This document shows positions 1 to 32,000 of a stretch of DNA of 32,000 bases, in pieces. The DNA lies in the NCBI RefSeq assembly GCF_029232205.1, contig NZ_CP107255.1, positions 870,001 to 902,000 of the forward strand, written 5' to 3'. Position 1 is the first letter of the stretch. Every line of letters begins with the position of its first letter. A program made the position numbers and the translations under genes. The stretch comes from Candidatus Saccharimonadota bacterium. Its GTDB lineage: Archaea; Nanohalarchaeota; Nanosalinia; Nanosalinales; Nanosalinaceae. The notes under the pieces are model-generated. The model did not search any database, was not told the origin of the DNA, and worked only from the letters and a program-made list of their open reading frames with translations.

Positions 1-195
1 ATACTGAACATCACCGTCATATAGAGTCTTTAGAGCCTCAAAAGAATCACTTGGAATACTTGTTCCCGAATAAAGATGATTTCTGAAGCCGCTATCTATC
101 TCTGCTGAAATATCATCTAGAGTGAACCCCTCGGCTTTGAGAGAATCATAAACCTTTTGCAGCTCAGACTTAGGGACCTTAACCCTTCTCTCCAT
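1..195 (-). CDS. hypothetical protein, N-terminal fragment (continues past window edge)
   Basis: Reverse-strand ATG at 193-195 opens MERRVKVPKSELQKVYDSLKAEGFTLDDISAEIDSGF... with no stop down to position 1. It is absent from the ORF track because it is truncated. Confidence 0.4.
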   Translation of the reverse strand, partial: MERRVKVPKSELQKVYDSLKAEGFTLDDISAEIDSGFRNHLYSGTSIPSDSFEALKTLYDGDVQY

Positions 196-256
196 AGAAA
201 CGCAATAACTAGTTTGTTTTTTAAGAGTTCCAATTCTTATTACGAGATACAGCAAC

Positions 257-360
257 AGTCCCCTGGTGTAGTGGCCAAATACCTTCAACACTATGTTAAG
301 GTAGGCAATTCATAGCGGCCTTTGGAGCCGCTGACCCAGGTTCGAATCCTGGGGGGACTA
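257..360 (+). tRNA. tRNA-Gln(UUG) with a ~31-nt intron between the D-arm and the anticodon stem (about 283-314)
   Basis: Acceptor AGTCCCC/GGGGACT with A1-U72 (typical of archaeal tRNA-Gln) and discriminator A. D-arm GTGT-AGTGGCCAA-ATAC. Anticodon arm GCGGC-CTTTGGA-GCCGC, anticodon TTG at 322-324. T-arm CCAGG-TTCGAAT-CCTGG. About 31 extra nt lie between position 26 and the anticodon stem. No encoded CCA. Confidence 0.7.
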
Positions 361-397
361 TAATCATTCTCAGATATGTAATTTAGTGTAAAAAACG

Positions 398-405
398 ATA
401 TTTCT
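398..405 (+). promoter_or_regulatory. TATA-like motif ATATTTCT, 23 nt upstream of the ATG at 428 (leaderless or near-leaderless mRNA)
   Basis: The same octamer recurs at 2741-2748, 7475-7482 and 8208-8215 in intergenic DNA. No Shine-Dalgarno precedes the ATG at 428. Confidence 0.3.
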
Positions 406-427
406 TGCTGGAACAAATTCTCCTTCT

Positions 428-751
428 ATGAGACAGGATGAGGAAAGTGTAGAGGATGTGCTGGAGAACATAAGCCTGTTTTTAAAGGCCTTTGAAGTGG
501 ATGAGTCTGATATCGGGATTGTTCTTTCGCCGGCGTATGAGAACGTGGATGGCAGGCCTCGATTGGATTATTTTGTGAAGGCCTATACTGATTTGAATCC
601 GTGTTTGGATGGTTCTGTGTATATTGAGGAAGGTTTTTCTGAGGATGTGTATACTGGCTGGGTGGAGGAGTTTGAGTCAGGTTTTCCGGAGGCCGATGTT
701 GCTGCGGCTAGTTTTGAGGATTTAGAGCACTTGATGCAGGGTTCGTTGTAG
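428..751 (+). CDS. acidic hypothetical protein
   Basis: 107-aa ORF with D/E-rich composition matching the rest of the window. TATA-like motif upstream. Confidence 0.55.
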   Translation: MRQDEESVEDVLENISLFLKAFEVDESDIGIVLSPAYENVDGRPRLDYFVKAYTDLNPCLDGSVYIEEGFSEDVYTGWVEEFESGFPEADVAAASFEDLEHLMQGSL

Positions 752-836
752 AAGTACTGTTCTGATGATTTTGTTTTCGTGTAAGAAAGGATATTTTCCA
801 GTCATTCTGGTATAGTATTTGGAGGGCTGAAGAAAA

Positions 837-1043
837 ATGAATGAGGAAGATTTACCTAGCTTCTCGGCTTTAAGTCTTGTAGGAGCTGCAGCAGTGGTTA
901 TTGTGTACTGGATACATCTTGCATTGATAAACAGGCCTTTGATCAATGAGACAGGGATCAGTTTAACGATATTTGTCTCGGCTTACCTGGCCCAGTACCT
1001 GCCTTTGAGAGCTTTAAGAACCCGACTTTTGACGAAGATGTAA
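837..1043 (+). CDS. small membrane protein (two predicted TM helices)
   Basis: GGAGGG at 821-826 lies 10 nt before the ATG. Two hydrophobic stretches (ALSLVGAAAVVIVYWIHLALI, ISLTIFVSAYLAQYL). Followed by the hairpin at 1045-1070. Confidence 0.45.
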   Translation: MNEEDLPSFSALSLVGAAAVVIVYWIHLALINRPLINETGISLTIFVSAYLAQYLPLRALRTRLLTKM

Positions 1044-1044
1044 G

Positions 1045-1070
1045 CTGGAGTCAATATTTCAAAACTCCAG
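1045..1070 (+). terminator. hairpin CTGGAGT-N12-ACTCCAG just after the stop of the 837-1043 ORF
   Basis: Perfect 7-bp inverted repeat read directly from the sequence. Confidence 0.3.
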
Positions 1071-2736: not shown

Positions 2737-2740
2737 AAAA

Positions 2741-8839: not shown

Positions 8840-8940
8840 AAATCCAGAAATCTCCTGTAGAAATTCTTTACCCTCTTAAGAACATACCATATACACAAAA
8901 ACAGTTTCTAAGACACTCATATTACAACAAGTCGATTGTA

Positions 8941-8969: not shown

Positions 8970-9217
8970 AGAACAGGCCTTTCTCCAAACCATTTTTAAA
9001 GGTGGTTACCATAAAACATGCATAAGAACGAGCCACGATAGCGACTGGACTCGGCCCGGTTCCCCTTTCACAACCATCCCTCAACGGGAGGTAATTTTTT
9101 TGGGAATCGGGATCCCGCGGAGAAACCACACTCCGTCAACAAAAAATGAAGCGGCCCTCGGTCTCAACGTCGCTTCCACATAAAGAAAATATTGAGACAA
9201 ACTTGGTGAATCAACCA

Positions 9218-11536
9218 ATGAAGAACATCAAAAAACTCAAATCTTATGGAAAGACTGTAGCAGCATCCGCACTACTTGTTGGAGCTACTGTAACCGGCGC
9301 AGCCGGTCTAGCAGCAGCACAAAACAATGGGTCCAGTGGAGCTGACTACACACTACAGGATTATCCAGCACCTTTCGTAGATGACGAAGGGAACGTAGAT
9401 ACATCCATCGTCGTAGGCACAGACGGAAAACAGGCCGACGTAGTCTCCGCAGTAGATATCGCAGGAGACCTAGGAAACCAAGCATTCTCCGAAGAATCAG
9501 TAGATGGTCCAAGCGGAGCATCAGTAGATGGAGAACAACTGAATGAGGAAGTACTCGGTTTAGACCTAACAACTACAACAATTGATGCATCCGATTATTC
9601 AGCATTCACAAGAACAACAATGGAAGATGACGACGGAGAAGATGTATTTGTCACTGAATCCGCACAGATCTCAGGAGTCGCTTCCAGAATCAACGGAACA
9701 TCTACAGATTTCAACGTTCAGCCTGGCGACGTCACATACGACGTAACTTACAGCCCAGGATTCAAGGAGAACGATACAGTAACTATGCTCGGTAACGAAT
9801 ACGAGCTAGTCAACATTGTTGACTCAGGAGAAGTAGAACTTGGCTCAACAATGGAAGAGGACATGACTGTAGGAGATTCCTACGAGCACGGTCCTTACAC
9901 AGTAGAGATCACAGGACAGACATCCGGAGACAACTCAGAAGTAGTAGTAAGAGTTTCTGAAGGAGAAGAAGTCCTAGACACAAAAGCACTAGAAGAAGGA
10001 GAAACACTAGAGCTAGACGACGAATATGACTTCTCAGTCACAGCATCCACAGTAATCTTCTACAGCGATGGGACACAGGACGTAACCCTAGAGTCCACCT
10101 ACACAGACACCACCCTAGAAGAAGGAGAAGATCTGCCAATGGATGACAGATACGAAGTCGATACAATCGCCACAGCAGACAGCACTACAACAGTAACAGG
10201 CTTCACTCTAGAAAACACAGTGAAAACTGTAGAAGAAGCAGAAGATGAAGATGAAGTTCCTTACGTAGAAACTGATCAGTCCTTCGCTGGACCAGCTGAC
10301 TACTTCAGTCTAACAAACCAGGGAATTACAAGCGAAGCAATGAGCACAGTTGAATTTGGCAGCGAATACGATCTGACATACACAGATCCAAACGCTCAGG
10401 AACAGAGTCTTGACATGACAGAACTGCGAACCAACGGAGACACAAACATCTCTAGCTCTGACGATGGAACATACTTCGCAGTGGTAGGCTCCGATAAAGG
10501 AAACGACGGTACTTCAGACTCCTACCTAGTAGAAGTTACAGACGTATCTACAGACGGTACAAACGGACCTGTAGATGCCGTTACACTGGAGCACGCTAGC
10601 TTCGAGCAAACTTTCGAAACAACCGGAACAACAGGATCCGTTTCAACAGGATACGGATTTAGCGTCGGAGTTACATTTGGAGCAAACGGTGGAGACAACG
10701 CATCCATCACAGGAACAACAACAGACTCCCTAACAGTACAGGGAGGAGCAAACGTAAGCCTAGAAACCAACGACCCAAGTAGCGGTGGACTAGGCATTGC
10801 CGATAGCAATGCTGGCTCAGATGCTTTGAACATCAGAATCTCCGAAGCAGAAGGAACAGATGAATCCGGCGCAGATACAGGAGACATCCACGTCTTCTAC
10901 GATGAAGACGACGATGGAGAAGACTACTTCAATGACGCTGATGACGGCGAAATTGGAGCAGTCTACTACGCTGGAGCAGAAGACGAAGCTTCAGGTACCA
11001 CGACCAACCTAGGAGACGTTGAAGATGGAGACGAGACACTCACACACTTCGGTTCAGAAGTCGTACTCAACAGCGCAACAGGCGCAGAGGTAATGTACCC
11101 TGATGAGCAGAGATATCAGGTTGCAGCATTCGGTTCCACAGAAGGAGGATCCACAAATGGAGCAGTTTCCATGACTCCAACAGGATTCCCAGCTGGAACT
11201 GGAACAATGGATACAGATGTATCCAACTCTGACAGAAGTCAGAACATGATCCTCGTAGGAGGACCAGAGGTCAACGACCTGACAGCTGATCTAGCTGACG
11301 AAGGACAGACCTGGAACTCCACTCAGTACGAGAACAACCAAGGCGTAGGCGTCCTAGACCTAGTCAACGACGCTTTCGACGAAGGTTACTCTGCACTTGT
11401 AGTTGCAGGATGGAATGCTGAAGACACAAGCGCTGCAGCAGACTACCTAGTTAACTACAACGCAGACACAGACACAGCTCTAGAAGGTAAGACGACCGCA
11501 CAGGTCAACACCGACACAAACGAGCTAGTAGAGTAA
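9218..11536 (+). CDS. S-layer / major cell-surface protein (Methanococcales-type S_layer_N and S_layer_C features)
   Basis: GGTGA at 9205-9209 lies 8 nt before the ATG. Signal peptide MKNIKKLKSYGKTVAASALLVGATVTGAAGLAAAQ. N-terminal DYPAPFVDDEGNVDTSIVVGTDGKQADVVSAVDIAGDLG and C-terminal ILVGGPEVNDLTADL...ALVVAGWNAEDTSAAADYL resemble archaeal S-layer domains from memory. Extremely T/D/E/G-rich, with no C-terminal TM anchor. Confidence 0.7.
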   Translation: MKNIKKLKSYGKTVAASALLVGATVTGAAGLAAAQNNGSSGADYTLQDYPAPFVDDEGNVDTSIVVGTDGKQADVVSAVDIAGDLGNQAFSEESVDGPSGASVDGEQLNEEVLGLDLTTTTIDASDYSAFTRTTMEDDDGEDVFVTESAQISGVASRINGTSTDFNVQPGDVTYDVTYSPGFKENDTVTMLGNEYELVNIVDSGEVELGSTMEEDMTVGDSYEHGPYTVEITGQTSGDNSEVVVRVSEGEEVLDTKALEEGETLELDDEYDFSVTASTVIFYSDGTQDVTLESTYTDTTLEEGEDLPMDDRYEVDTIATADSTTTVTGFTLENTVKTVEEAEDEDEVPYVETDQSFAGPADYFSLTNQGITSEAMSTVEFGSEYDLTYTDPNAQEQSLDMTELRTNGDTNISSSDDGTYFAVVGSDKGNDGTSDSYLVEVTDVSTDGTNGPVDAVTLEHASFEQTFETTGTTGSVSTGYGFSVGVTFGANGGDNASITGTTTDSLTVQGGANVSLETNDPSSGGLGIADSNAGSDALNIRISEAEGTDESGADTGDIHVFYDEDDDGEDYFNDADDGEIGAVYYAGAEDEASGTTTNLGDVEDGDETLTHFGSEVVLNSATGAEVMYPDEQRYQVAAFGSTEGGSTNGAVSMTPTGFPAGTGTMDTDVSNSDRSQNMILVGGPEVNDLTADLADEGQTWNSTQYENNQGVGVLDLVNDAFDEGYSALVVAGWNAEDTSAAADYLVNYNADTDTALEGKTTAQVNTDTNELVE

Positions 11537-11549: not shown

Positions 11550-11584
11550 GAGGCCTTAACAGGCCTCTTCTTTTCTTTATTTTA
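11550..11584 (+). terminator. hairpin GAGGCCT-TAAC-AGGCCTC followed by a T-rich tract
   Basis: The 7-bp stem is built from two AGGCCT copies, 14 nt after the S-layer stop. It is followed by TTCTTTTCTTTATTTT. Confidence 0.55.
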
Positions 11585-20693: not shown

Positions 20694-20735
20694 ATTGTTA
20701 GAAGTTGGATCTATGTTAATCAATTTACCGGAATC

Positions 20736-21158: not shown

Positions 21159-21230
21159 TAAAGTTCACCTTATACCAATAAATTACATACAAAACAGTAA
21201 ATAAATGACGAAAAAAGAAAGGAAGAAAAG

Positions 21231-22121
21231 TTAAACCAGATCCTGAAGGATTTCTCCTATCTCATGATGCACATCCGCCACGTGCGCACCAGCATCCTCC
21301 AAGGCCTTTTTCTTGTGAGATGGCTTCCCACGATCACCTCGAATGATTGCACCGGCGTGACCGTACTTCTTCTCAGGCATCGACTCCGTAAAACGGCCTG
21401 TAATATATGCAACCAGCGGCTTAGTGAACTCTTCTTTCTCAAGCAGTTCAGCGGCCTTTTCCTCATATGTTCCGCCTAGCTCCCCGAATAAAACCACGGC
21501 CTCGGTCTGGTCATCTTCTTCAAACATTTTCAGGGCGTCCTCAAATGTTGTTCCAGCAATAACATCCCCTCCCAGGCCCATAGCTGTAGAGACGCCGTAT
21601 CCTGCCTGTCTTACTACCCAGGATGTTTCTGTTGTCATTCCTCCTGACTTGGAGATAACTCCTATCTTGCCAGACTGATAGACTTTTTCTGGCTGGTTTC
21701 CGCCGATAGGCCCCAGTTTGCATTCGCCAGGAGTGATTATTCCTACTGATGTCGGGCCCACCATTGTTGCGTCTGCTTCCTCGACTTTCTGGTGAACTTT
21801 CCATGCATCGCGCGTTGGAATTCTCTCTGTGATCACGTTGAGAGTCTCTATACCATTTTCAAGCGCTTCAAGTATTGCATCTTTCGCTGCAAACGGCGGT
21901 ACGTAGATCAGCGAGGTGTTGATCTCTGGATGATTTTCCAGAGCCTCCGAGACTGTGTCATATACTGGTACGCCTGATACTTCCTGACCTCCTTTTCCAG
22001 GAGTTACTCCTGCGAGGACTTCGGTTCCGTATTCAAGTATGTCCGGTACTTTTTCAGAGGCCTCTCTGCCTGTAATTCCCTGTACGAGAACCTTTGTGTC
22101 TTCATCTATTACGATGCTCAT
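21231..22121 (-). CDS. succinyl-CoA synthetase alpha-like subunit, probably the citryl-CoA synthetase small subunit
   Basis: VLVQGITGREAS...GVTPGKGG (CoA-binding), SKSGGMTTE, and the phosphohistidine loop YGHAGAII. The assignment to citrate rather than succinate rests on the partner genes. Confidence 0.75.
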   Translation of the reverse strand: MSIVIDEDTKVLVQGITGREASEKVPDILEYGTEVLAGVTPGKGGQEVSGVPVYDTVSEALENHPEINTSLIYVPPFAAKDAILEALENGIETLNVITERIPTRDAWKVHQKVEEADATMVGPTSVGIITPGECKLGPIGGNQPEKVYQSGKIGVISKSGGMTTETSWVVRQAGYGVSTAMGLGGDVIAGTTFEDALKMFEEDDQTEAVVLFGELGGTYEEKAAELLEKEEFTKPLVAYITGRFTESMPEKKYGHAGAIIRGDRGKPSHKKKALEDAGAHVADVHHEIGEILQDLV

Positions 22122-22747
22122 TTTTTCACCTCTTGGAGTGCTCTGGAAACGTTTTCATAATTTATTTTTTCGATTTGTAGGCCTTCTGTGGATGAGCCAA
22201 AGCTGTGGAACTGTTTTACCCATACAAAGTTCATTCCTACTTTTTCTGCGGCCTTGTCTCGGTCTACATAGTTGCCGAAGTATGTCATCTGCTCTGGAGG
22301 TTCTTCTCTCTGTTCTACAAAGGTTTCGAATATTTTTCTGTCAGGTTTTTCAACTCCTACTTCTGCGGAGACCACAAATCCTTCGTATTCAAGGCCTGAT
22401 TCGCGGAAGTTTTCTGCGTAGAATTTTTTGGCTGGTGCGGAGTTGTCGCTGATGAATCCGATCGGGCCGTACTCCCTGTTTATCTTTTTCAGTTTTGGAA
22501 TCATTTTCTCTTGAAGGTACTGTGTCTTCCATTCCAGGTATTCTTCTGTAATCTCTTTGCCTGACCCTTCGAGGTTGTTTTCCTCCAGCCATTGATCCAT
22601 TTCTTCAGGTACGTAGACGTTGTACTTGTTGATATCCATCTGCGGGGCGTCTCCAATCACTTCCTGTATTAACTCATTTATCTTTGAGTGCGAAGGCACC
22701 AGAGTATCGCCAATATCGAATACTGCAATCTCACTCATCTCTACCAC
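22118..22747 (-). CDS. HAD-superfamily hydrolase
   Basis: Motif I AVFDIGDTL, motif II GFISDNS, motif IV GNYVDRD. It overlaps both flanking CoA-ligase subunit genes, by 4 nt and by 8-17 nt. Confidence 0.65.
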   Translation of the reverse strand: MVEMSEIAVFDIGDTLVPSHSKINELIQEVIGDAPQMDINKYNVYVPEEMDQWLEENNLEGSGKEITEEYLEWKTQYLQEKMIPKLKKINREYGPIGFISDNSAPAKKFYAENFRESGLEYEGFVVSAEVGVEKPDRKIFETFVEQREEPPEQMTYFGNYVDRDKAAEKVGMNFVWVKQFHSFGSSTEGLQIEKINYENVSRALQEVKK

Positions 22748-23879
22748 CTTTGAACTCTTCTACCATGTCCATCAGTGTTTCTGCAGTTTTGGTCATCGGC
22801 GTATCGTTTCTGTAAAGTTTCATGTTTAGATCAAGTTCTTCTTTCTTCTCTCTAAGTAGTTCAAAGGCCTCATCTGCGTGAGGTCCATCTCTTCTGATTA
22901 CTATAGGATATTCAGGCCTTTCCTCTTCCAGAGCCTGTATAAATCCTTTCATTGTTCTCAGTATATCTGTATTGTTGGCTGTTCCTCCTACATGCCAGAG
23001 GCCGTTCAGCTCTTTCGACATTATTACCTTGGAAAGCCTGTATACTTTTTCTGTCGGTGGATTGCCTCCGTACTCCGTGTAATTTGCAGGTTCACCACCG
23101 TATTCTATCAGCGCATCCATGTTTGTGAGTGATGCTCCGCCCCCGGCCAGCATCATGCCGATGTCTCCATCAAGTTCTGTGTATTTTCCTGCCACCCCTC
23201 TGTGGTCGTCCTCATCGATTTTTTCGGCTCTGAGCTCTCTTTCCGTCTTTTCTCGGCCTAGATCAGATCTTTCAGGCAGATCTCTGGAGTGTCGGTATTT
23301 TGCGTCGTCATCCAGATCCATCATCGCATCCAGAACAACATAACCTTCCTCGGTTTTTGCCAGAGGATTGACCTCCAGAAGCCTTGCATCTTCCTCCAGG
23401 AAGGTCTTGAAAAGCTTCTGCAGTGCGATTCCAAGTTTTACTATTTCCTTTCCCTCAAAACCCTGCTCCTTCAGAAACTGTCGGAAACGGAACTGTGAGC
23501 TATCTTTCAGAGCCAGTTTTGCGGCCTCTCTGTCTTCAATTCCTGTTCCTCCTGACCGGGAGAAAATCATAGCTGGTTTGCGAGTATCTGTGTCGTACAT
23601 GAATGATACGTAGTATTCCTCTGTGAAATCTAGTTGTTCTTCCACTAGAACGTTTTTGACTTCTTCAGAGTCGATTCGGCCTCCGATCATCTCCTGTTTC
23701 TCGGCCTCGGCCTCCTTCCTGTTTTTTGCAAACCTGATTCCGCCTTTCTCCTTTCTGTTGTTGGCAAGTACCTGGGCCTTGACAACGTACTCTTTGTCGT
23801 CTTCATGAAGGCCTTTTTCCGGTGTTTTCAGGCCGTGTTTTTCTATTATCTCCTTGGCTTCCTGTTCGTGGAGTTTCAC
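22731..23879 (-). CDS. ATP-grasp CoA-ligase beta-like subunit with ATP-citrate-lyase-type motifs (citryl-CoA synthetase large subunit-like)
   Basis: GTG start, (M)KLHEQEAKEII. MLAGGGASLTNMD, PANYTEYGGNP, GGTANNTDI and IRRDGP resemble ACLY (VAGGGASVVYSD, ANYGEYSGAP, GGSIANFTNV, VRRGGP). They do not resemble SucC (VNGAGLAM, ANFLDVGGGA, GGIVRCD, VRLEGN). Confidence 0.65.
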   Translation of the reverse strand: MKLHEQEAKEIIEKHGLKTPEKGLHEDDKEYVVKAQVLANNRKEKGGIRFAKNRKEAEAEKQEMIGGRIDSEEVKNVLVEEQLDFTEEYYVSFMYDTDTRKPAMIFSRSGGTGIEDREAAKLALKDSSQFRFRQFLKEQGFEGKEIVKLGIALQKLFKTFLEEDARLLEVNPLAKTEEGYVVLDAMMDLDDDAKYRHSRDLPERSDLGREKTERELRAEKIDEDDHRGVAGKYTELDGDIGMMLAGGGASLTNMDALIEYGGEPANYTEYGGNPPTEKVYRLSKVIMSKELNGLWHVGGTANNTDILRTMKGFIQALEEERPEYPIVIRRDGPHADEAFELLREKKEELDLNMKLYRNDTPMTKTAETLMDMVEEFKGGRDE

Positions 23880-23941
23880 AGCAAGCTAATTTCTCTGCAA
23901 TAATTTAAGATTGTGCTCAGGTTTTCCTTTGTAGGAGTATA

Positions 23942-24436
23942 ATGTTTTCAGAAGTTGCTGTTGACAGCCAGGTTGAGGCCGAAGGGAAAGAGCTTTACAG
24001 AAGAGATTATCCTGATGTTGCGGAAGATATCGCGAATAGTTATGGTACTAGGCCTAGATACAGTACTGCTTTCGGGGAAGATCACCTGACAGTTTTCAGA
24101 GGAGATACAGAGGAAGTTTTCCAGGATTTACTTGAGGATGGAGATCTGGTGAGAGATTTCCCTATCTACTTTACGGATTCAGAGGATGCCGCTGAAGTGT
24201 ATGCTGACAGAAAGTTCGATGACTCCGGCAGACTGGTTCTTGAGATAGAAGTTCCTTACGAGGATGTGGAGATTCTGGACAGCGAACAAAGCGATATCGA
24301 ACAGGGGGATGTCGAAGTTGAGCCTGGAAAACTGTATTATGTAGGCTCTAATATGGCTCCAGGCCCTACCGAAAGAGAAATGGAGTTTGTAGGCACAGAG
24401 ATCCCTGAGGAATGGTACTCTGTCAGACAGCTATGA
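23942..24436 (+). CDS. acidic hypothetical protein
   Basis: 164-aa ORF. AGGAG lies 5 nt before the ATG. Confidence 0.6.
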   Translation: MFSEVAVDSQVEAEGKELYRRDYPDVAEDIANSYGTRPRYSTAFGEDHLTVFRGDTEEVFQDLLEDGDLVRDFPIYFTDSEDAAEVYADRKFDDSGRLVLEIEVPYEDVEILDSEQSDIEQGDVEVEPGKLYYVGSNMAPGPTEREMEFVGTEIPEEWYSVRQL

Positions 24437-24471
24437 CAAGTTATTTATCGTAGAGAATTTCTTTGGAAACT

Positions 24472-24990
24472 ATGGTATACACGGGGAGAGGCGATAGAGG
24501 CCGCACCGATCTTTCTTCTGGAGAAAGAGTTTCGAAAAGCAGTGAGAGAATAGAGGCCTACGGAACAGTAGATGAACTAAACTCTCTGACAGGTCTCTGC
24601 AGAACATACACTGATGAAAAAGGCGGGGAACTCGAAGAAGTTCAGAACGAACTCCATATTCTACAGGCCGAGCTAGCAAACCGTGAACCTGACACAAAAG
24701 TTACAGAGGAAAATATTGACAGACTGGAAGAACTCTGCGACAAATACCAGGAGGCCTGTCCACCGCTAAGAAGTTTTGTACTGGCAGGAGGAACAAAAAG
24801 CGCGGCACACCTGCATCAGGCCCGTTCAGTTGCAAGAAGAGCTGAAAGAAGAATTGTAGAACTTGATCAAGACGTAGAATTAAGAGAAGAAGTTCTAGCC
24901 TACATTAACCGTTTAAGCGATCTCTTCTTCCTCATGGCCCGGCATGAAAACTTCCTGGAAGATGTGGAAGAGAAAAGCCCGAAATACTAG
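24472..24990 (+). CDS. ATP:cob(I)alamin adenosyltransferase, PduO type
   Basis: MVYTGRGDRGRTDL...ERIEAYGTVDELNSLTGL...FVLAGGTKSAAHLHQARSVARRAER. The ATG at 24472 is preferred over the TTG at 24463. Confidence 0.85.
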   Translation: MVYTGRGDRGRTDLSSGERVSKSSERIEAYGTVDELNSLTGLCRTYTDEKGGELEEVQNELHILQAELANREPDTKVTEENIDRLEELCDKYQEACPPLRSFVLAGGTKSAAHLHQARSVARRAERRIVELDQDVELREEVLAYINRLSDLFFLMARHENFLEDVEEKSPKY

Positions 24991-25736
24991 AGCTTTCTAT
25001 TCCACTCATCTGTTGAAAACTTCTTCTCAGCCAGCTCTCTGGCCTCCTCCAGTTCTTCATCCGTCAGAGAACTCTCCTCACGTTCTTTATCCTCTGTAAA
25101 CTTCTCTATCAAGGCCTCAATTACTTCTTCACGAGAATGATCTGCGTGATCAGATATACGTGATACTCTTTGCTCTGCTGACTTGACGGCTTTGTCAGAT
25201 ACTTTTTCCTTTCCGATACGGAGCACTCTCAGCATTTCGGCCGTATCTAGATCGTAGCTCATAGTCGTGTGGTGAAGAACCGCGTTGTCTTTTCTCAACT
25301 GGGCTGCTCCGCCAAGCTTCCCATCCGGATGCTCGATATCATTCATAGGAGCATAACTTGCGTCTACTCCCAGAGATTTCAGGGCCTCTACTGCGAAAGA
25401 ATCAAGCTCCTGATAGCTTCTCTCAATATCGTCATGAACCTCGTCAACCGGCAGATAGATCGAGTACGTGATCACGTTACCTGGCTCACAGAACATTGCT
25501 CCGCCACCAGTAACCCTTCTGACAACCTCAATATCTTTCTCCTTAGCGTAGTCGTGCTCAACCTCATCTTCGTAGGCCTGGAAACGGCCCATCGGCACAC
25601 TCGGATTCTTCCGGTACCAAAAACGTAGCGTAGGCCTTAACTCGCCCTCATTCATTTTTTCTGTCAGTACCTCATCTATTGCGTGATGCATTGCCTCAGA
25701 GTGCTCTCCCTTATTTATAATCCGCCATTTACTCAC
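24987..25736 (-). CDS. lplA: lipoate-protein ligase A, catalytic (N-terminal) domain protein
   Basis: RRVTGGGAMFCEPGN and DGKLGGAAQLRKD, the latter carrying the catalytic Lys. GTG at 25736 is preceded by AGGTGA with a 5-nt spacer. Confidence 0.8.
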   Translation of the reverse strand: MSKWRIINKGEHSEAMHHAIDEVLTEKMNEGELRPTLRFWYRKNPSVPMGRFQAYEDEVEHDYAKEKDIEVVRRVTGGGAMFCEPGNVITYSIYLPVDEVHDDIERSYQELDSFAVEALKSLGVDASYAPMNDIEHPDGKLGGAAQLRKDNAVLHHTTMSYDLDTAEMLRVLRIGKEKVSDKAVKSAEQRVSRISDHADHSREEVIEALIEKFTEDKEREESSLTDEELEEARELAEKKFSTDEWNRKL

Positions 25737-26016
25737 GGTTATCACCTAGTGCTTTCTCAAAGGCCTTTCCAAGATCTTCAGGATTAAAACCTATCATTTT
25801 TACATCAACATTTCTGACTCGGTCAGCAACATCTTTTACACTGGCTTTTTCACTTATACCTGTTAATGCTTGCTCTATTTCGGAAAGTTTTTCCGCAGGT
25901 TCAAGGAAAAAATCTCCTCTCAGCTCCGCGCTCTTAATCACTGTGTTCTCCTTCTCAAGTTTTAGTTTCAGCATTTTGCCGTCTTCAACCTTGTACGAGG
26001 CCTTCTCCATAATCAT
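25729..26016 (-). CDS. lplB: lipoate-protein ligase C-terminal domain protein (LplB-like)
   Basis: YKVEDGKMLKLKLEKE...IKSAELRGDFFLEPAE...IEQAL. A stand-alone domain as in Thermoplasma LplB. 8-nt overlap with the lplA start. ATTATTTAT lies about 19 nt before the ATG. Confidence 0.7.
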   Translation of the reverse strand: MIMEKASYKVEDGKMLKLKLEKENTVIKSAELRGDFFLEPAEKLSEIEQALTGISEKASVKDVADRVRNVDVKMIGFNPEDLGKAFEKALGDNRE

Positions 26017-26112
26017 ATTACGTGGCTGTATCAGGATAAATAATCTGCTGTAGATATCTGCAGAACTTATCAACAAGGAGTCCTATTTTCTAGATGTGCA
26101 GGAATAAAACCT

Positions 26113-28761
26113 ATGAGCGACAAAAAGTGGCACAGCAAGAAATTAGACAAGGTATTGGGAGAACTGGGCGCGGAGAAAGAAGGCCTTTCCTCTTCTCAAG
26201 CCGATGAAAGACTGGAAAAATATGGAAAGAATAGTATAGAGAACGAAAACAGCATATCTCCTGTCAGAATCTTTCTATCACAGTTCCAGGATGTTCTTGT
26301 ATACATGCTTTTTGCAGCAGCCGCAGTATCAATCGGAGTTGGGATTCTACCTGGTGAACAGGCCCGAATCACAGAGGCCGGATTAATAGTTTTCATACTT
26401 GTATTAAACGGGTTCTTCGGCTTCTTCCAGGACTACAGAGCAGAGAAATCAATCAAGGCCCTTAAAGAAATGAGCAATCCCGACACCATGGTACTGAGAG
26501 ATGGAGAGAAAAGAGAGATCGACTCGAAAAAAGTAGTGCCCGGAGACATAATCTTTCTGGAGCCCGGAACCTCCATTCCAGCGGATGCAAGACTGATCGA
26601 GGCCGAAAGCCTCTCCACAAACGAATCAGCTCTCACAGGCGAAAGCAGCGAGGCCAATAAATCAGTTGAAGTACTTGAAGAAGACACTCCTATCGCAGAA
26701 ACATCCAACATGGTTTTCAAGAACACGAACGTGGTTAATGGATCAGGCAAGGCTGTAGTAGTTGGAACAGGTATGAAAACGGAGGTTGGAGGCATCGCAG
26801 AACAGTTAAACGAGGCCGAGGACCGGCTCACGCCATTCCAGAGAGAGGTCAACCAGCTAGGCAAAAGACTCGGATACGTAATTCTCGGAGTAATCGGCCT
26901 GGTAACAGTCTTCCAGTTTATCTTCACATCGGCAGCTCCACTCACAATATTCCTAGCAGCACTCAGCCTCGCAGTAGCAGCAAACCCAGTAGGCCTACCA
27001 GCAGCCGTAACACTTGCACTGGCCATGGGATCCAGAAAAATGCTTGAAAGAAACGTACTTGTCAGAAGACTTAACGTAATCGAAAGCCTGGGATCAGTAG
27101 ACGTAATCATAACAGACAAGACAGGAACACTGACAGAGGAAAAAATGACAGTCAAAAAACTATTCTTCAAAGGAGAAACCTTCAAGGCCTCAGTAGAAGA
27201 CAACGAAAAACCATTATTCCACCGCCATAGCCATGAAACAGACATCGATCACCTCAGGCCTCTGATTCAGTGCGGCTTCGAATGCAACGATGCAGAGAAA
27301 GCACCTGAGGACGAGGACTCAAAATACTACGGCGATCCTACCGAAGTAGCCCTTCTGCAGACTGCCAGAGACGCAGGCCTCAGCAACAGATCCAGCAGAG
27401 AGAAAACGATCCCATTCAACTCCGAGAGAAAAAGAATGACCGTAGTAACAGAGAACGGAGAGGCCTACATGAAAGGCGCTCCGGAAGTTGTACTGGAAAG
27501 ATGCGACAGAATACTTACAGAAAACGGAGTCGAAGAACTTACAGAAGACGTTCGAGAAACGGTAAGAGAGAAAAACAGCGAATTCAGCTCCGACGCAATG
27601 CGAACACTTGGATTCGCGAAGAAACAAGATGTAGAGTCAGAAGAAGCTGAAGAAATAGAGAATCAGATGATCTTCCTAGGCCTTCAGGGCATGATTGATC
27701 CTCCGCGCAAAGAAGTTCCTGAAGCAGTACAGGACTGCAGAAACGCAGGAATACAGGTAGTAATGGCTACAGGTGACGACATAACTACGGCAAAGGCCAT
27801 CGGAGAAGAAACAGGTTTCAACCCCGAACTCTCACTGGAAAGCAGCCAACTACAAAGCCTTGAGAAAGAAGAAATAGTGGATAAAGAAATATTTGCACGA
27901 GTCACTCCCGAGGACAAGGTCAAGATACTGAAGGCCCACCAGGAGAACGGCAGCAACGTGGCCATGACCGGGAACGGAGTAAATGATGCACCAGCCCTGA
28001 AAAATGCAGACATCGGAGTGGCCATGGGAGAAAGAGGCACGGATGTTGCACAGCAGAGCAGCGACATGATAGTCCAGGACGACAACTTCGTCAGCATAAG
28101 AGATGCAATAGCGGAAGGAAGAGGAATAAGCGACAACATCAGAAAATCAGTCAACTATCTCCTCTCAGGAAACATGGGCGAAGTAATGATAGTATTCTTC
28201 GGCCTTATCATCGGAGGCCTTCTATTCCCAGAAGTATTCCAATCCCATGAAGAGGCCCTGATCCTTACACCGATGATGCTTCTCTGGATCAACTTCATCA
28301 GCGACGGATTCCCTGCGCTAGCGCTCAGCACCGATCCACCGATGGAAAAAATTATGCAGGAGACAGAGAAATACGGCAACAAATCCCTGATGGACTCATC
28401 AGTCCTCAAATCAATACTGTACATAGGAGCTCTCATGGCAGCAGCAGGCCTTCCAGTATTCTTCCTTGCACTGGGTAAAAATCTGCTGATCGCTCAGACA
28501 GCGCTTTTCAGCTTCATAATCCTGGCTGAAACCGCAAGAGTACAGGTAATCAGAAACAGGTACGGCCACAGCATACTCAGCAACAACTGGGTGCTCGCAG
28601 CACTTGGCACATCACTAACACTTCAGATGCTACTGCTCTACACACCGGCCGCTGAAGTATTCGGCACCGCCTCACTCGCAGCAAACGCATGGCTCAAAAT
28701 ACTGGCAGCGACAGCAGGATTTTCAGTACTCACAGCAATCTTCTCGAGGTACAACCAGTGA
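26113..28761 (+). CDS. P-type cation-transporting ATPase (P2A-like architecture, ion uncertain)
   Basis: LTGES, DKTGTLT, KGAPE, MATGDD, 10 TM segments, TM5 YLLSGNMGEV and TM6 NFISDGFPA. The variant motifs PVGLP (not PEGLP) and TGNGVNDAP (not TGDGVNDAP) are read from the DNA; AAC is at 27973-27975. Confidence 0.85.
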   Translation: MSDKKWHSKKLDKVLGELGAEKEGLSSSQADERLEKYGKNSIENENSISPVRIFLSQFQDVLVYMLFAAAAVSIGVGILPGEQARITEAGLIVFILVLNGFFGFFQDYRAEKSIKALKEMSNPDTMVLRDGEKREIDSKKVVPGDIIFLEPGTSIPADARLIEAESLSTNESALTGESSEANKSVEVLEEDTPIAETSNMVFKNTNVVNGSGKAVVVGTGMKTEVGGIAEQLNEAEDRLTPFQREVNQLGKRLGYVILGVIGLVTVFQFIFTSAAPLTIFLAALSLAVAANPVGLPAAVTLALAMGSRKMLERNVLVRRLNVIESLGSVDVIITDKTGTLTEEKMTVKKLFFKGETFKASVEDNEKPLFHRHSHETDIDHLRPLIQCGFECNDAEKAPEDEDSKYYGDPTEVALLQTARDAGLSNRSSREKTIPFNSERKRMTVVTENGEAYMKGAPEVVLERCDRILTENGVEELTEDVRETVREKNSEFSSDAMRTLGFAKKQDVESEEAEEIENQMIFLGLQGMIDPPRKEVPEAVQDCRNAGIQVVMATGDDITTAKAIGEETGFNPELSLESSQLQSLEKEEIVDKEIFARVTPEDKVKILKAHQENGSNVAMTGNGVNDAPALKNADIGVAMGERGTDVAQQSSDMIVQDDNFVSIRDAIAEGRGISDNIRKSVNYLLSGNMGEVMIVFFGLIIGGLLFPEVFQSHEEALILTPMMLLWINFISDGFPALALSTDPPMEKIMQETEKYGNKSLMDSSVLKSILYIGALMAAAGLPVFFLALGKNLLIAQTALFSFIILAETARVQVIRNRYGHSILSNNWVLAALGTSLTLQMLLLYTPAAEVFGTASLAANAWLKILAATAGFSVLTAIFSRYNQ

Positions 28762-29501
28762 AATGGCGATACATACCCTTCCAGCACTACAACCCCTACT
28801 TCAAAACAGGCCTCAACACAGCCCTGATGGAGTCAGTCAGAGAGACCGAAGAACCAGTAATATTTCTCTCAGGCTGGAAACCTAACGCGATCAACCTCGG
28901 ATACAGCCAGAAATTCGAGGAAGAAGTAAACCAGGAAGAATTCGAGAAACGAAGAGACGTAGTGCTGGTAAGACGTCAGGGAGGTGGAGGCGCTACATAC
29001 CTGACACAGAACGGAGAAATAACATGGGGAATAGTAGCTCCCGAAGAAGAGTTCCCCGACGACGTCAACAAGATATATCAGCAGGTCTGCGGAGAAATAG
29101 CGGAAGGCCTGAAAGAAATAGGGATTGATGCCGAACACCAGCCAATCAACGACATAGTAACTGAAAAAGGAAAAATATCAGGCACCACACTGAAACGAAA
29201 AGACGGCGTAGTATACATCGGGGGCACTTTACTCTACGAAGTTGATGCAGAGGAAATGTTTTCACTTCTAACACCAGACAAAGACAAAATAAAAGATAAA
29301 CAGATAGAGGATTTCAGAGACAGAGTTTCATCAGTAAAAAAAGAATCAGAGGCCTCTTTTGATGAAACAATTGAAGCGCTGAAGAAAGGCCTGACCAAGA
29401 GCAGAAAATACAGCGTCGATGAACTCAAAGAAGGAGAGATTGAAAGGGCTGAAGAACTAGCAGATAAATATTCTAGTGAGGACTGGTTGTACAGAGAATG
29501 A
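28758..29501 (+). CDS. lipoate-protein ligase A family paralog 2
   Basis: GTG at 28758 overlaps the ATPase TGA (GTGA). GAGGT lies 7 nt upstream. VRRQGGGGATYLTQNG and KGKISGTTLKRKDG are present, so the Lys is retained. Confidence 0.75.
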   Translation: MKWRYIPFQHYNPYFKTGLNTALMESVRETEEPVIFLSGWKPNAINLGYSQKFEEEVNQEEFEKRRDVVLVRRQGGGGATYLTQNGEITWGIVAPEEEFPDDVNKIYQQVCGEIAEGLKEIGIDAEHQPINDIVTEKGKISGTTLKRKDGVVYIGGTLLYEVDAEEMFSLLTPDKDKIKDKQIEDFRDRVSSVKKESEASFDETIEALKKGLTKSRKYSVDELKEGEIERAEELADKYSSEDWLYRE

Positions 29502-30223
29502 ACATCGAACCTGAAAAGACAGAGGCCTACAGCATAAATGTAGAAGATGCAGCCCATATACCGGATTTAGTCGCGCTTACACAGGAACTAGGCCAGTACA
29601 AACCAGTAATTATAGGCCTGGATCATCAGGAAGAACCTCACGCAATGCGAGGCCGTTACGAGAGTACTGGCGATCTTATAGCTGGTGAAGAGGTTTACAG
29701 AAGGCCTGATGGAGGTCACACTGTTTTCTCAGATGATTCAAAATACGCCCTAACTTTTGGCCTGCCCGTAGAACCTTTCGAAAGTAAGAATGCCGACACC
29801 CTTACGGAAGGAGTTCACGACTTTATTGATGATAGAACAGATCAGTGCTTTCAGAGAGGTGCGCGCGATCTCTACACGGGAGGAGACCAGATCGTAGGAG
29901 TCTCTCAGAGATTGAAAGGCGATTCAGCAGTTGTCAGAGCTTACTGGGCAGAGGACCTTCCAGAAGTCTACGGCCTGATGTATAGGGACGGATTCTCAGA
30001 TGAAGAAATGAACAGACACCAGAGAGCAATGGAAAAATCGACAGAAATACTTGGAGGCCAGGACTTTTACAAAACAGTTATGGAAGAATTTGGAGTTGAG
30101 GAAACACAGGATTCAGGTGAGTTTCTCAGAGCTCACGGAATAGAACCAGGAACTCTTTCAGAACAGCTTCTTGAGGAAGAAGGAAAAAGAGAAAGAAAGG
30201 CCTGTTTCCTGGAAAGAGGCTAG
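29498..30223 (+). CDS. divergent LplA/LipB-family paralog 3 lacking the catalytic lysine
   Basis: The ATGA overlap couples it to paralog 2. VYRRPDGGHTVFSDDS aligns with the RRxTGGG motif. GGDQIVGVSQRLKGD aligns with DGKLGGAAQLRKD but has Gln in place of Lys. Confidence 0.55.
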   Translation: MNIEPEKTEAYSINVEDAAHIPDLVALTQELGQYKPVIIGLDHQEEPHAMRGRYESTGDLIAGEEVYRRPDGGHTVFSDDSKYALTFGLPVEPFESKNADTLTEGVHDFIDDRTDQCFQRGARDLYTGGDQIVGVSQRLKGDSAVVRAYWAEDLPEVYGLMYRDGFSDEEMNRHQRAMEKSTEILGGQDFYKTVMEEFGVEETQDSGEFLRAHGIEPGTLSEQLLEEEGKRERKACFLERG

Positions 30224-30648
30224 TAAGGCTGCTCGGCACTATATCTGAACGTGACGTTTGCGGAGTCACTGAGCCTGTAGTTGTCAACAGATGTCGAAGG
30301 CATTTCTCCATCAACGTAGAAAAGCCAGCTATGAGTATCGTTCTGACTCAGACCATTAATAGAAGTTACAAAGTAGCCAAAGTCGTACTCCGTATACTCA
30401 ACATCGTAAGTGCTGTTTAAGACATGGAAAACCGTAGAGTTCTGCCTTACAGAAACATTCTCATTCAGAACAGCGTCCGGTTTCTCGACAGTCAAATTCA
30501 CGACAACATGCTCTTCACCAAAAGTAACCTCCGGCGCAGAGTTAGAGAACTGCATTCCTGAAGCTGCAAGCGCAAGCAGGAAAAGGCCTGCAAAGATGTA
30601 AAATACGTCTTTCTTACCGATAAAGTCCAATTTTTTCTTTAGATCCAT
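30220..30648 (-). CDS. DUF4430-like secreted protein (transcobalamin beta-domain-like)
   Basis: N-terminal anchor VFYIFAGLFLLALAASG. STVFHVLNSTYDVEYTEYDFGYFVTSINGLSQNDTHSWLFYVDGEMPSTSVDNYRLSDSANVTFRY matches the DUF4430 pattern from memory. Confidence 0.55.
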   Translation of the reverse strand: MDLKKKLDFIGKKDVFYIFAGLFLLALAASGMQFSNSAPEVTFGEEHVVVNLTVEKPDAVLNENVSVRQNSTVFHVLNSTYDVEYTEYDFGYFVTSINGLSQNDTHSWLFYVDGEMPSTSVDNYRLSDSANVTFRYSAEQPY

Positions 30649-31171
30649 AGAGTATCAACCCAAAACCAACTGTACTAACAAGATGAGCGAACGCAAACGG
30701 AAGGGCCGCAGCCATAAACGCAAAACTGAAGCCCGAGGCCATAAAACCTACAGAAGCCAGATTAATAACAACCTCGTAAACCACAAGGCCTACAGCTGTC
30801 GATACAAGAAAAGCATTTCTACCCTTGCTAATATTTCCTGCAAGGCCTCCTGTAACACCTGCTGCTGCAGCACCAAGCACCTGGAAAAACGTCCAGGGGC
30901 CCTGACCTCCCCACACAAGAAAGTTCGAAATATAATATCCAGTGGCTCCAGCAGCAACGCCTTCACGCATACCAAAGTAGAAACCCGTAGCAGCTGCTAC
31001 AGCGATCAAAGGCTCTACACTCGGCACATGCTGCAAGGCCACTCTACCAGCAACACCGGTAGCTGTCAAAACTGCGGTGACTGCAAAGGCCTTTGTCTTG
31101 AAGTATGATTTTGACCTAGAATCTGATTGCTCGAAAAAAGCATCTAGATCAACCGCTGTTTCAGCGCTCAT
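30614..31171 (-). CDS. polytopic membrane protein, putative ECF-type S-component-like vitamin transporter
   Basis: About 5-6 TM segments. RVALQHVPSVEPLIAVAAATGFYFG resembles S-component N-termini. The ATG at 31171 has GGGGGAG 9 nt upstream. Overlaps the DUF4430 gene by 35 nt. Confidence 0.45.
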   Translation of the reverse strand: MSAETAVDLDAFFEQSDSRSKSYFKTKAFAVTAVLTATGVAGRVALQHVPSVEPLIAVAAATGFYFGMREGVAAGATGYYISNFLVWGGQGPWTFFQVLGAAAAGVTGGLAGNISKGRNAFLVSTAVGLVVYEVVINLASVGFMASGFSFAFMAAALPFAFAHLVSTVGFGLILYGSKEKIGLYR

Positions 31172-31312
31172 AGAAAAATTCTCCCCCTTCAATTCTCCCC
31201 ATAATCTGTAACCGATTATTGGGACTACTTCATTAAGAGTCTTCGGACCTCCAACCGATCAGTTAAAAAATTAGGCCTACAGAAATTCTACTACAGACAA
31301 TCTTTACTCCAA

Positions 31313-31340
31313 TGCGAGGGTCGAAGATCTCTAAGATCTT
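31313..31340 (+). repeat. third partial copy of the tRNA-Leu(GAG) 5' end (GCGAGGGT) followed by the hairpin GAAGATCT-CTA-AGATCTTC
   Basis: TGCGAGGGT occurs at 31312, 31364 and 31419 (spacing 52 and 55 nt). The 8-bp perfect stem is at 31322-31340. Confidence 0.5.
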
Positions 31341-31364
31341 CTCGACACAAGCAAATCTATGATT

Positions 31365-31395
31365 TGCGAGGGTAGCCAAGTTGATTGCCAACCCT
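31365..31395 (+). repeat. exact 16-nt copy of the tRNA-Leu(GAG) 5' end (31365-31380 = 31420-31435), folded back on ATTGCCAACCCTC
   Basis: GCGAGGGTAGCCAAGT occurs twice, 55 nt apart. The hairpin has the same architecture and the same A.A and C.C mismatches as the element at 7850-7883. Confidence 0.75.
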
Positions 31396-31419
31396 CCAAA
31401 AACAAACTGGCAAAACAGA

Positions 31420-31502
31420 TGCGAGGGTAGCCAAGTGGTCAAAGGCGCAGCGTTGAGGGCGCTGTCCTGTAGAGGTTCCGGGGTTCGAATCCTCGCTCTC
31501 GC
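31420..31502 (+). tRNA. tRNA-Leu(GAG), class II
   Basis: Acceptor GCGAGGG/CTCTCGC (one G.U pair), D-arm GCC-AAGTGGTCAAA-GGC, anticodon arm CAGCG-TTGAGGG-CGCTG, variable arm TCCTGTAGAGGTTC, T-arm CGGGG-TTCGAAT-CCTCG. Confidence 0.88.
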
Positions 31503-31575
31503 AAGTCCATATTCCTACGAATCACGCGATTCTCTGTTTATAGGGAAGTCAGCTCCATAACCGAGAGCAAGACAA

Positions 31576-32000
31576 TCACGTTGAAAGATTCTCATCAAAC
31601 CAGGATTCTGTAGCCTCAATAACTTCATCCAGATTTTTATCGTAGTCGTGAGTTAAACCTTCAACTACCTTAAGTTCCCCCGCTTCCAGTTTTTCTACAG
31701 CTTTCTTGGAGTCTTCTAAATCTACTACCTCGTCCTCACTGCCGTGGATAATCAACACAGGACAACCCACTTCTGAGAGGAGTTCTTCCTGGTCTACATG
31801 TTTCATTTCGTCTACTATTTTCGAGCCTATCCACATCAATTGCTTCTTGTTCTTCCAGTAGTTAACACTCGGAACTCTGCCTACTAACCTAGCGAGTACC
31901 GTCCAGAGCAAGTTTTTCTTCGACAAGTCGATGCTGCTAGTTACAGGAGCCGTTAATACCATCGCCTTGACTTCAGATCTGTAATTCTTCAGCGAAATGT
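31576..32000 (-). CDS. alpha/beta-fold hydrolase, C-terminal part (N-terminus beyond the window)
   Basis: ...CPVLIIHGSEDEVVDLEDSKKAVEKL...LKVVEGLTHDY... carries the typical Asp/His end of an alpha/beta hydrolase. The frame stays open upstream of the M at 31962 through position 32000. Confidence 0.6.
   Translation of the reverse strand, partial: ISLKNYRSEVKAMVLTAPVTSSIDLSKKNLLWTVLARLVGRVPSVNYWKNKKQLMWIGSKIVDEMKHVDQEELLSEVGCPVLIIHGSEDEVVDLEDSKKAVEKLEAGELKVVEGLTHDYDKNLDEVIEATESWFDENLST

Follow-up and report, generated by a model that had tools for sequence, protein, structure and literature searches.

The stretch of DNA considered here, referred to as the window, comprises 32,000 bases of the approximately 1 Mb genome of Candidatus Nanohalovita haloferacivicina BNXNv, a cultured DPANN nanohaloarchaeon that lives as an ectosymbiont of Haloferax lucentense (PMC10266531). 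Gene calling with a self-trained codon model gives 39 genes that occupy 86% of the window. Their content is mostly housekeeping and includes ribosomal proteins S13, S4, S11, L13 and S9 and RNA polymerase subunits, alongside an S-layer protein, transporters of the MFS, ZIP, AI-2E and P-type ATPase families, citrate/citryl-CoA enzymes, lipoate ligases and three tRNAs. Dispersed through these genes and the DNA between them is the hexamer AGGCCT, which is a highly iterated palindrome of the kind known as HIP in cyanobacteria. The features on which the argument draws are listed below by position in the window; a permissive position is a coding position where synonymous codon choice could spell AGGCCT, and is termed filled when it does so.

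1741–2736, + strand: AI-2E transporter gene; AGGCCT in all three phases (xAG GCC T at 1754, xxA GGC CT at 2346, AGG CCT at 2563) with a further site at 2364; 4 of 6 permissive positions filled.
9146–11536, + strand: S-layer protein gene; 0 AGGCCT, 2 GGCC, 0 of 7 permissive positions filled.
11550–11567, + strand: hairpin GAGGCCT-TAAC-AGGCCTC followed by a T-rich run, 14 nt past the S-layer stop codon; two sites (11551, 11561).
15500–16642, − strand: MFS transporter gene; near-saturated, with a site at 7 of 8 permissive positions.
21856–28244: block colinear with the close metagenomic relative L009 at 87.5% nucleotide identity; basis of the conservation test.
22731–23879: citryl-CoA synthetase gene (382 amino acids); product 100% identical to a protein of Candidatus Nanohalovita haloferacivicina; marker protein for the comparisons and the tree.
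26113–28761, + strand: P-type ATPase gene; 9 sites, 9 of 13 permissive positions filled, 25 GGCC; compared with relatives.
AGGCCT start positions: 486, 554, 579, 933, 1461, 1692, 1754, 2346, 2364, 2563, 2981, 4429, 4474, 4559, 5343, 5497, 6129, 7050, 7445, 7704, 8801, 8975, 11551, 11561, 12319, 12621, 13722, 13880, 14576, 14827, 15047, 15744, 15769, 16053, 16221, 16306, 16518, 16566, 16659, 17570, 17750, 18031, 18169, 18275, 18397, 18584, 19498, 19658, 19735, 20065, 20233, 21302, 22058, 22179, 22392, 22865, 22914, 23809, 24050, 24554, 24752, 25112, 25574, 25632, 25761, 25998, 26181, 26991, 27185, 27256, 27375, 27461, 27678, 28215, 28446, 28808, 29105, 29350, 29387, 29523, 29614, 29702, 30198, 30584, 30786, 30843, 31087, 31273.

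AGGCCT occurs exactly 88 times in the window (2.75 per kb) and ranks top among all 4096 hexamers. A first-pass annotation of the same DNA had tallied 85–90 copies; every coordinate that it quoted (1692, 1754, 2346, 2563, 4559, 8801, 11551 and 11561) is a true site, and it described the three phases within gene 1741–2736 correctly. The number expected from Markov models is 6.4 (order 0), 7.8 (order 1), 22 (order 2), 50 (order 3) and 85.6 (order 4), the last being N(AGGCC)·N(GGCCT)/N(GGCC) = 166·130/252. The first-pass annotation had named a similar count from a high-order Markov model as grounds for doubting the enrichment; however, the match at order 4 is no refutation, because the pentamers AGGCC (166) and GGCCT (130) are already anomalous and the model inherits the anomaly from them. 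The agreement shows only that, in the window genome, an A before GGCC (252 copies) and a T after it are statistically independent of each other. T follows GGCC in 42–53% of cases, irrespective of the preceding base.

Codon usage fails to explain the excess, as had been proposed from the occurrence of the site in different phases. When synonymous codons are shuffled with the protein and the codon usage of each gene preserved, 13.4 ± 3.3 coding sites are obtained, and no more than 27 in any of 1000 shuffles, whereas 72 are observed (z = 17.5); shuffling the order of codons leaves 9.2 ± 2.9. The density of AGGCCT is 2.64 per kb in genes, which hold 72 of the 88 copies, and 2.95 per kb in intergenic DNA; a codon or codon-pair artefact is ruled out by this intergenic density and the two types of shuffle. 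The site is found in genes on both strands and, as the first-pass annotation had it, independently of reading frame: it is read 8 times as AGG CCT (Arg-Pro), 28 times as xAG GCC Txx ([Lys/Glu/Gln]-Ala-x) and 36 times as xxA GGC CTx (x-Gly-Leu). A function at the level of RNA or peptide is unlikely, since the palindrome is used to the same extent in genes of either orientation, and in all three phases and between genes as well. Beyond the hexamer the flanks are uninformative (≤0.06 bit per position), the spacing of sites is near-exponential (coefficient of variation 1.09) and bias modulo 3 is absent, so AGGCCT is a free-standing hexamer and not a piece of a repeat. A longer repeat or mobile element is ruled out by the information-free flanks, and a dispersed repeat of REP or MITE type, whose copies have 20–150 nt in common and are mainly extragenic, by the lack of extended common sequence and the intragenic location of most copies. 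There is a mild excess of sites after stop codons, with 6 within 20 nt (2.15 expected) and 10 within 40 nt (4.3 expected); sites in the first 40 nt include 1692, 8801, 11551, 16659, 18397, 29523 and 30198.

To place the window among its relatives, loci around the citryl-CoA synthetase marker gene were drawn from collections of genomes and metagenomes, and the marker protein sequences were arranged in a neighbour-joining tree. Enrichment is seen in three clades: clade A (the window, L009, L007, L006 and L011), with AGGCCT observed/expected ratios of 6–12; clade B (L014 and L031), with ratios of 11–14; and the deep-branching clade C (L029, L030, L032, L033 and L034), with ratios of 14–22. Baseline lineages lie between the three enriched clades on the tree. 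The cultured SVXNc has 3 AGGCCT (4.9 expected) and LC1Nh (Candidatus Nanohalobium constans, L167) has 2 (4.5 expected). SVXNc and BNXNv share a host species (PMC10266531); because SVXNc is at baseline on that host, the host is not the cause of enrichment and a host-driven effect is ruled out. In some lineages GGCC is avoided: L045 (an ENA scaffold, GC 52%) has 5 copies where 62 are expected, as well as 5 CTAG where 73 are expected, and LC1Nh has 13 GGCC where 38 are expected. Such avoidance is as expected under GGCC-directed restriction, with CTAG-directed restriction in addition for L045. Enrichment in some lineages and avoidance in others imply that GGCC-directed enzymes seemingly act in this phylum with opposite outcomes.

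AGGCCT is also seen on viral contigs from IMG/VR. It is the top hexamer of L052, a 6.6-kb contig with terminal redundancy and a Rep protein (PF23343), and it is dispersed with matching spacing on two AT-rich viral contigs (L047 and L122, GC 36%), the hexamer list of L047 being topped by TTAAGGCC-type words. A scan of viral contigs for clusters of three sites gave, among the matches listed, mostly tandem repeats or GC-rich noise.

The word that is recognised can be dissected by comparison with a baseline of 170 kb from non-enriched relatives. The full site is enriched 12-fold over this baseline in clade A, 13-fold in clade B and 19-fold in clade C. Single-letter changes in the inner four positions are not enriched (0.3–1.3-fold, with one exception of 2.0-fold in clade B), while the outer transition variant AGGCCC/GGGCCT reaches 7–14-fold in all three clades and the outer transversion variants AGGCCG/CGGCCT and AGGCCA/TGGCCT reach 3–4-fold in clade A only. 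The target is a rigid GGCC core with softer A/T flanks. A…T flanks are carried by 35% of GGCC cores in the window and by 11% in sister lineages that lack the enrichment. Equal enrichment of all NGGCCN variants, which the first-pass annotation had taken as the sign of a simple composition effect, is not what is found: GGCC without A/T flanks stands at approximately 1.2–1.7 times baseline against 12 times for the full site, and a plain GGCC composition effect is ruled out. In clade C the hexamer acts as a single unit, with 109 full sites to 37 half-sites and a flank odds ratio of approximately 5. The words that differ from AGGCCT by a C-to-T change show no consistent depletion: AGGTCT/AGACCT stands at 1.0, 0.5 and 0.9 times and AGGCTT/AAGCCT at 0.6, 1.3 and 1.1 times in clades A, B and C, respectively, and their codon-shuffle z-scores in the window range from −1.7 to +0.6. 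Clade C seems to have a low intergenic density (3 sites in 3.8 kb, against 4.3 per kb in genes, with approximate gene calls), in which it is unlike clades A and B, and its excess consists almost wholly of the full hexamer.

The strength of the enrichment is best seen at permissive positions. In the window 72 of 130 such positions are filled (55%), despite GGA, GCA, AGA, AAA and GAA being the preferred codons; GGC, GCC and AGG are minor codons, and many sites require two or three synonymous changes contrary to codon preference. Arg-Pro is spelled AGG CCT in 8 of 12 cases, where codon usage predicts approximately 5%. Occupancy of permissive positions is 0.34–0.57 in clade A, 0.44 in clade B and 0.69 in clade C (31 of 33 for Arg-Pro), and 0.04 in non-enriched nanohaloarchaea. 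Estimated from counts, the odds of AGGCCT are raised approximately 28-fold at permissive coding positions and 13-fold in intergenic DNA, which looks like one uniform pressure, weak per site and at equilibrium with mutation. The pressure reshapes protein sequence in enriched lineages. The observed/expected ratio of the Arg-Pro dipeptide rises from 0.44 at baseline to 1.07, 1.24 and 2.06 in clades A, B and C, and that of Gly-Leu from 0.94 to 1.36, 1.42 and 1.57; of the reversed dipeptides, Pro-Arg has no consistent shift and Leu-Gly is also up in clades B and C.

AGGCCT sites are maintained, in that they change more slowly than other synonymous positions, and they lie at orthologous positions in colinear genes. 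In the block shared with L009, 18 of 22 sites are kept (82%) against 44% of all hexamers; in relatives at approximately 77% identity the proportions are 36–48% of sites against 22–25% of hexamers. Synonymous codon identity, computed where the amino acid is conserved, is 0.90 within sites and 0.68 elsewhere for L009, 0.76 and 0.54 for L007, 0.67 and 0.53 for L006, and 0.67 and 0.55 for L011. Maintenance is accompanied by continuous turnover, since approximately half of the sites differ between genomes of equal overall density. When GGCC is compared between the window and L009, 12 cases are called as gains, 4 as losses and 12 as ambiguous; because the outgroups are distant, the calls lean toward gains. 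At positions permissive in both genomes, occupancy is positively correlated (odds ratios 4–10 between genomes approximately 77% identical), and at this identity shared ancestry and position-specific selection are inseparable as its source.

A departure from this pattern concerns the S-layer gene. An interval of 2576 bp between 8975 and 11551 is free of sites and spans this 2.4-kb gene, in which approximately seven sites would be expected at the density of the window and none is seen (estimated Poisson P(0) approximately 1e-3). The S-layer protein has only 47–57% identity to its nearest homologues; in the genome with the 55–57% matches, by contrast, the orthologue of citryl-CoA synthetase is 90% identical. 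The syntenic S-layer gene of CP046106.1 (L044, 4763–8875) has one site in 4.1 kb against 1.76 per kb in its flanks, and the adjoining stretch of accessory genes is likewise site-poor. AGGCCT and GGCC are nearly missing from the S-layer gene in these two clade A genomes. High expression as the cause of the gap is weakened, because the genes for S13, S4, RpoD and S9 do contain sites and the S-layer protein is unusually divergent. Taken together, the divergence and the sites in ribosomal protein genes suggest a fast-evolving or replaced surface gene that is short of equilibrium. The stem at 11550–11567, which the first-pass annotation had described as paired sites resembling a terminator, folds as RNA at −12.3 kcal/mol (z = −3.5), and none of 200 shuffles folds as well. 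Its counterpart in L044, GAGGCCT-TTCAC-AGGCCTC with a T run, lies at 8882–8900, downstream of the syntenic S-layer gene. This conserved hairpin, formed by two copies of AGGCCT, has the look of a terminator.

Several further observations concern the gene content of the window. Three paralogues of the lipoate-protein ligase catalytic domain (24987–25745, 28689–29501 and 29498–30223) surround the P-type ATPase gene, with a separate gene for the lipoate ligase C-terminal domain at 25729–26076, and the MFS transporter paralogues form a tandem pair at 14280–16642. At 20724–21230 the window is without two genes that in L006 (12688–14320) and L007 (8643–10290) separate citrate synthase from the CoA-ligase alpha subunit; they encode proteins of 279–283 and 252–253 amino acids, and the L007 copy of the former has a weak match to PD-(D/E)xK nucleases. 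The tRNA-Leu(GAG) gene at 31420–31504 is 98.8% identical to L006 4579–4662, though protein-coding DNA is approximately 78% identical. The coding strand is strongly A-rich all along the window, with AT skew of up to 0.43.

How might such a distribution arise? A pressure acting on DNA, genome-wide and in particular lineages, would install AGGCCT and keep it where other constraints permit; it would be weak at any single site and would act everywhere, whether the DNA is coding or not. Most likely the site is read by a symmetric dimer that recognises the rigid GGCC core and prefers A/T at its flanks. Three features point to a determinant that is sequence-specific, symmetric and horizontally transferable: the word is palindromic, its core is rigid while its flanks are soft, and one and the same hexamer recurs in separated clades. 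Methyltransferases and restriction-modification systems are the obvious class. The agent may thus be a horizontally mobile DNA methyltransferase specific for AGGCCT/GGCC, either an orphan or the relic of a StuI-type restriction-modification system. Methylated sites would then be favoured, through methyl- or context-directed mismatch repair or through selection for methylated sites, as Elhai proposed for HIP1. Methyl-directed mismatch repair is there put forward as a ratchet, and a motif-specific methyltransferase is described as present where an alternate HIP is frequent (PMC4390886). An AGGCCT-specific restriction-modification system exists in Alcanivorax SK2, in which nearly all of the 1674 AGGCCT are methylated (PMC12128166). 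We infer both the methyltransferase and its link to repair, and favour a methyltransferase-linked origin coupled to repair or selection only tentatively, as a possibility that falls somewhat short of probable.

Some results weigh against a methyltransferase. A Pfam search of approximately 36 of the predicted proteins of the window finds no gene for a methyltransferase, Vsr or mismatch glycosylase (and no nuclease), nor does a crude motif scan find any of these three in nanohaloarchaeal loci L001–L045. For BNXNv, the genome paper, which is without a methylome for this organism, names only a type III Mod/Res pair (the Mod being BNXNv_0801) and generic S-adenosylmethionine methyltransferases; in SVXNc methylation was shown for one motif, GDGCHC, which at 140 sites per genome is rare and not enriched (PMC10266531), so methylation alone does not enrich a site. 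In addition, the flanks in clade A are independent (odds ratio 1.2; order-4 expectation 85.6), which is easier to reconcile with recognition of a pentamer or half-site than with an enzyme strictly requiring the hexamer, as though AGGCC on either strand were recognised separately.

The alternatives divide according to what would read the site. The palindrome would suit an abundant dimeric DNA-binding protein for which AGGCCT is a selected binding or architectural site in the nucleoid, the sites being kept by weak purifying selection on their number and coverage and not produced by biased repair. The slower evolution of sites than of the synonymous background, the correlated occupancy of genomes at approximately 77% identity (odds ratios 4–10) and the uniform density in genes and intergenic DNA are all consistent with such a protein, and Xu et al. 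came to this conclusion for HIP1, arguing that it is under selection and tying it to chromosome structure (PMC5861425). However, no candidate protein is known, one hexamer in three separated clades would need repeated loss or transfer of a chromatin protein, the random spacing (coefficient of variation 1.09) gives no regular coverage, and the 36–48% of sites shared at approximately 77% identity are close to the proportion expected if each genome had filled its positions independently at the observed occupancy; a binding protein is possible but on the unlikely side. A self-recognition signal, either an uptake sequence like USS or DUS or a Chi-like mark that spares an organism's own DNA from a nuclease, could accumulate by molecular drive, and would be in keeping with the occurrence of AGGCCT in all frames, its effects on the proteome, its depletion in hypervariable and accessory genes, the inverted pair that forms a conserved terminator hairpin, the 10 sites within 40 nt past stop codons where 4.3 are expected, and the dependence of BNXNv on its host as an ectosymbiont (PMC10266531). 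Known uptake sequences, on the other hand, are non-palindromic, with 9–12 nt and an extended context; AGGCCT is a 6-nt palindrome without extended consensus, and a 6-mer discriminates little. We are aware of no description of an archaeal Chi system or of sequence-specific DNA uptake in archaea. No competence machinery is found among the window genes, in which no search aimed at competence genes was made. The signal is moreover absent from SVXNc, which lives on the same host, and it is difficult to account for one identical hexamer in distant clades unless the specificity determinant can be transferred; a self-recognition signal is unlikely. One form of it, which we regard as quite unlikely, is a self-DNA mark (Chi-like, methyl-mark-like or a first archaeal uptake sequence) of an ectosymbiont that feeds on host cytoplasm, by which its DNA-processing machinery would spare its own genome or recombine it preferentially while foreign or host DNA is degraded for nucleotides, the determinant being exchanged horizontally among nanohaloarchaea.

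The first-pass annotation had suggested a more specific route, a GGCC/AGGCCT cytosine methyltransferase coupled to Vsr-like very-short-patch repair, as is proposed for CCWGG in E. coli. In the classical form of such a drive, a Vsr- or Mig-type enzyme would turn T:G mismatches at the target of a C5-methyltransferase into C:G and so push neighbour words into AGGCCT. The rigid GGCC core and the mildly low AAGCCT/AGGCTT of clade A (0.6 times baseline) agree with this. Methanothermobacter, which has the GGCC methyltransferase M.MthTI together with the T:G glycosylase Mig.Mth, provides an archaeal precedent. But the loss of C-to-T neighbour words that it predicts is absent or inconsistent across the three clades (0.5–1.3 times baseline). 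Enrichment of 12–19-fold, occupancy of 34–69%, sites that need several changes and shifts in dipeptides also seem, as a matter of judgement and not of calculation, beyond single-step T-to-C correction. No Dcm or Vsr is reported for BNXNv (PMC10266531), and a Vsr-like gene is annotated in the non-enriched SVXNc (supplement of the genome paper, which covers SVXNc only). Very-short-patch drive in its classical form is thus very unlikely; the Vsr part of the suggestion is not supported, and the broader methyltransferase-linked cause stays favoured. Finally, an artefact of composition, of codon or codon-pair usage, or of copies of a longer repeat or mobile element might be suspected from the order-4 expectation of 85.6 and from the GGC, GCC and CTN codons in most coding sites. 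It is extremely improbable given 13 sites in protein- and codon-preserving shuffles against 72, equal coding and intergenic densities, the lack of enrichment in relatives of similar GC content, the absence of conserved flanking sequence and the fact that the order-4 model only inherits the anomaly of the pentamers.

Ever since the description of HIP1 in cyanobacteria, it has been an open question how hyper-abundant palindromes originate and what they do. The literature searched holds no report of HIP-like elements in archaea or of an archaeal excess of AGGCCT or GGCC, nor of either for BNXNv. The present case would extend the HIP phenomenon to archaea and to a genome of approximately 1 Mb, and its density matches the highest values for HIP1. 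It also offers a natural experiment, comprising two cultured nanohaloarchaea on the same Haloferax host, BNXNv with the signal and SVXNc without it, and at least three enriched clades among which baseline and GGCC-avoiding lineages are interspersed; the comparison of gene content with enrichment across such small genomes, together with one methylome, could identify the determinant directly. In practical terms, AGGCCT density is a strong signature for binning and host assignment in enriched lineages, and low AGGCCT marks genes that are recently acquired or fast-evolving, such as the S-layer gene. The effect of the pressure on proteins is a measurable distortion of their sequence, in the form of additional Arg-Pro and Gly-Leu dipeptides.

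Several known systems resemble this one in part. Restriction-modification systems of StuI type (AGGCCT) and HaeIII type (GGCC) have the identical recognition word and are mobile and patchy in distribution; their targets are usually avoided or neutral in their hosts, whereas AGGCCT is enriched 12-fold here. The Dcm/Vsr system of Escherichia coli (CCWGG) also has a palindromic methylation target that is over-represented through repair bias, with tolerant outer positions. Its effect is modest and is accompanied by depletion of T-containing derivative words, unlike the 12–19-fold enrichment of AGGCCT without depletion of such derivatives. The uptake sequences USS (Haemophilus) and DUS (Neisseria) occur approximately once per kb or more densely, lie in genes in all frames and shift peptide composition, are depleted in recently acquired DNA and form terminators as inverted pairs; they differ in being asymmetric sequences of 9–12 nt that depend on a competence receptor, with no archaeal example known.

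The closest precedent is that of the cyanobacterial highly iterated palindromes, which the first-pass annotation missed when it offered, as inference, the three candidate mechanisms of methyltransferase with Vsr, self-recognition signal and chromatin protein. HIP1 is GCGATCGC, and the dominant word varies by lineage; alternate HIPs include GGGATCCC, TCGATCGA and CAGGCCTG, the last of which contains AGGCCT and occurs in Synechococcus PCC 6312 at 0.37 per kb with an observed/expected ratio of 14.7 (PMC5861425). Both HIP and AGGCCT are short GC-rich palindromes over-represented more than 10-fold, at up to approximately 2.7 per kb for HIP and 2.75 per kb here; a threshold of at least 0.2 per kb and at least approximately 10-fold is exceeded by the 88 copies observed against 6.4–7.8 expected, and by the 12-fold excess over sister lineages. 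Both occur in all reading frames and in non-coding DNA for reasons other than codon usage, and both are formed in place, outside longer repeats (flanks of ≤0.06 bit and orthologous positions in the case of AGGCCT). Conservation above background between relatives is likewise common to them (82% against 44%, and 36–48% against 22–25%, for AGGCCT), as is the concentration of deviants at the first and last positions (3–14-fold at outer and 0.3–1.3-fold at inner positions here, with the one value of 2.0 in clade B); Elhai reported the same outer-position bias for HIP1, around its methylated core (PMC4390886). HIPs are scarce in recently acquired or atypical genes, so that HIP1-poor genes have been used to mark xenologues in Synechococcus PCC 7942 (PMC3025956), and AGGCCT is near-absent from the S-layer gene. 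There are differences: AGGCCT is a hexamer where HIP is an octamer, its host is a DPANN archaeon with a genome of approximately 1 Mb, it has no known cognate methyltransferase, it is carried by ribosomal protein genes, from most of which HIP1 is reported absent, and in clade A its flanks are independent and its half-sites enriched too. Nevertheless, AGGCCT matches HIP in every feature testable within 32 kb, a periodicity of 10–90 kb lying beyond that span, and it is an archaeal counterpart of the still-unexplained cyanobacterial HIPs.

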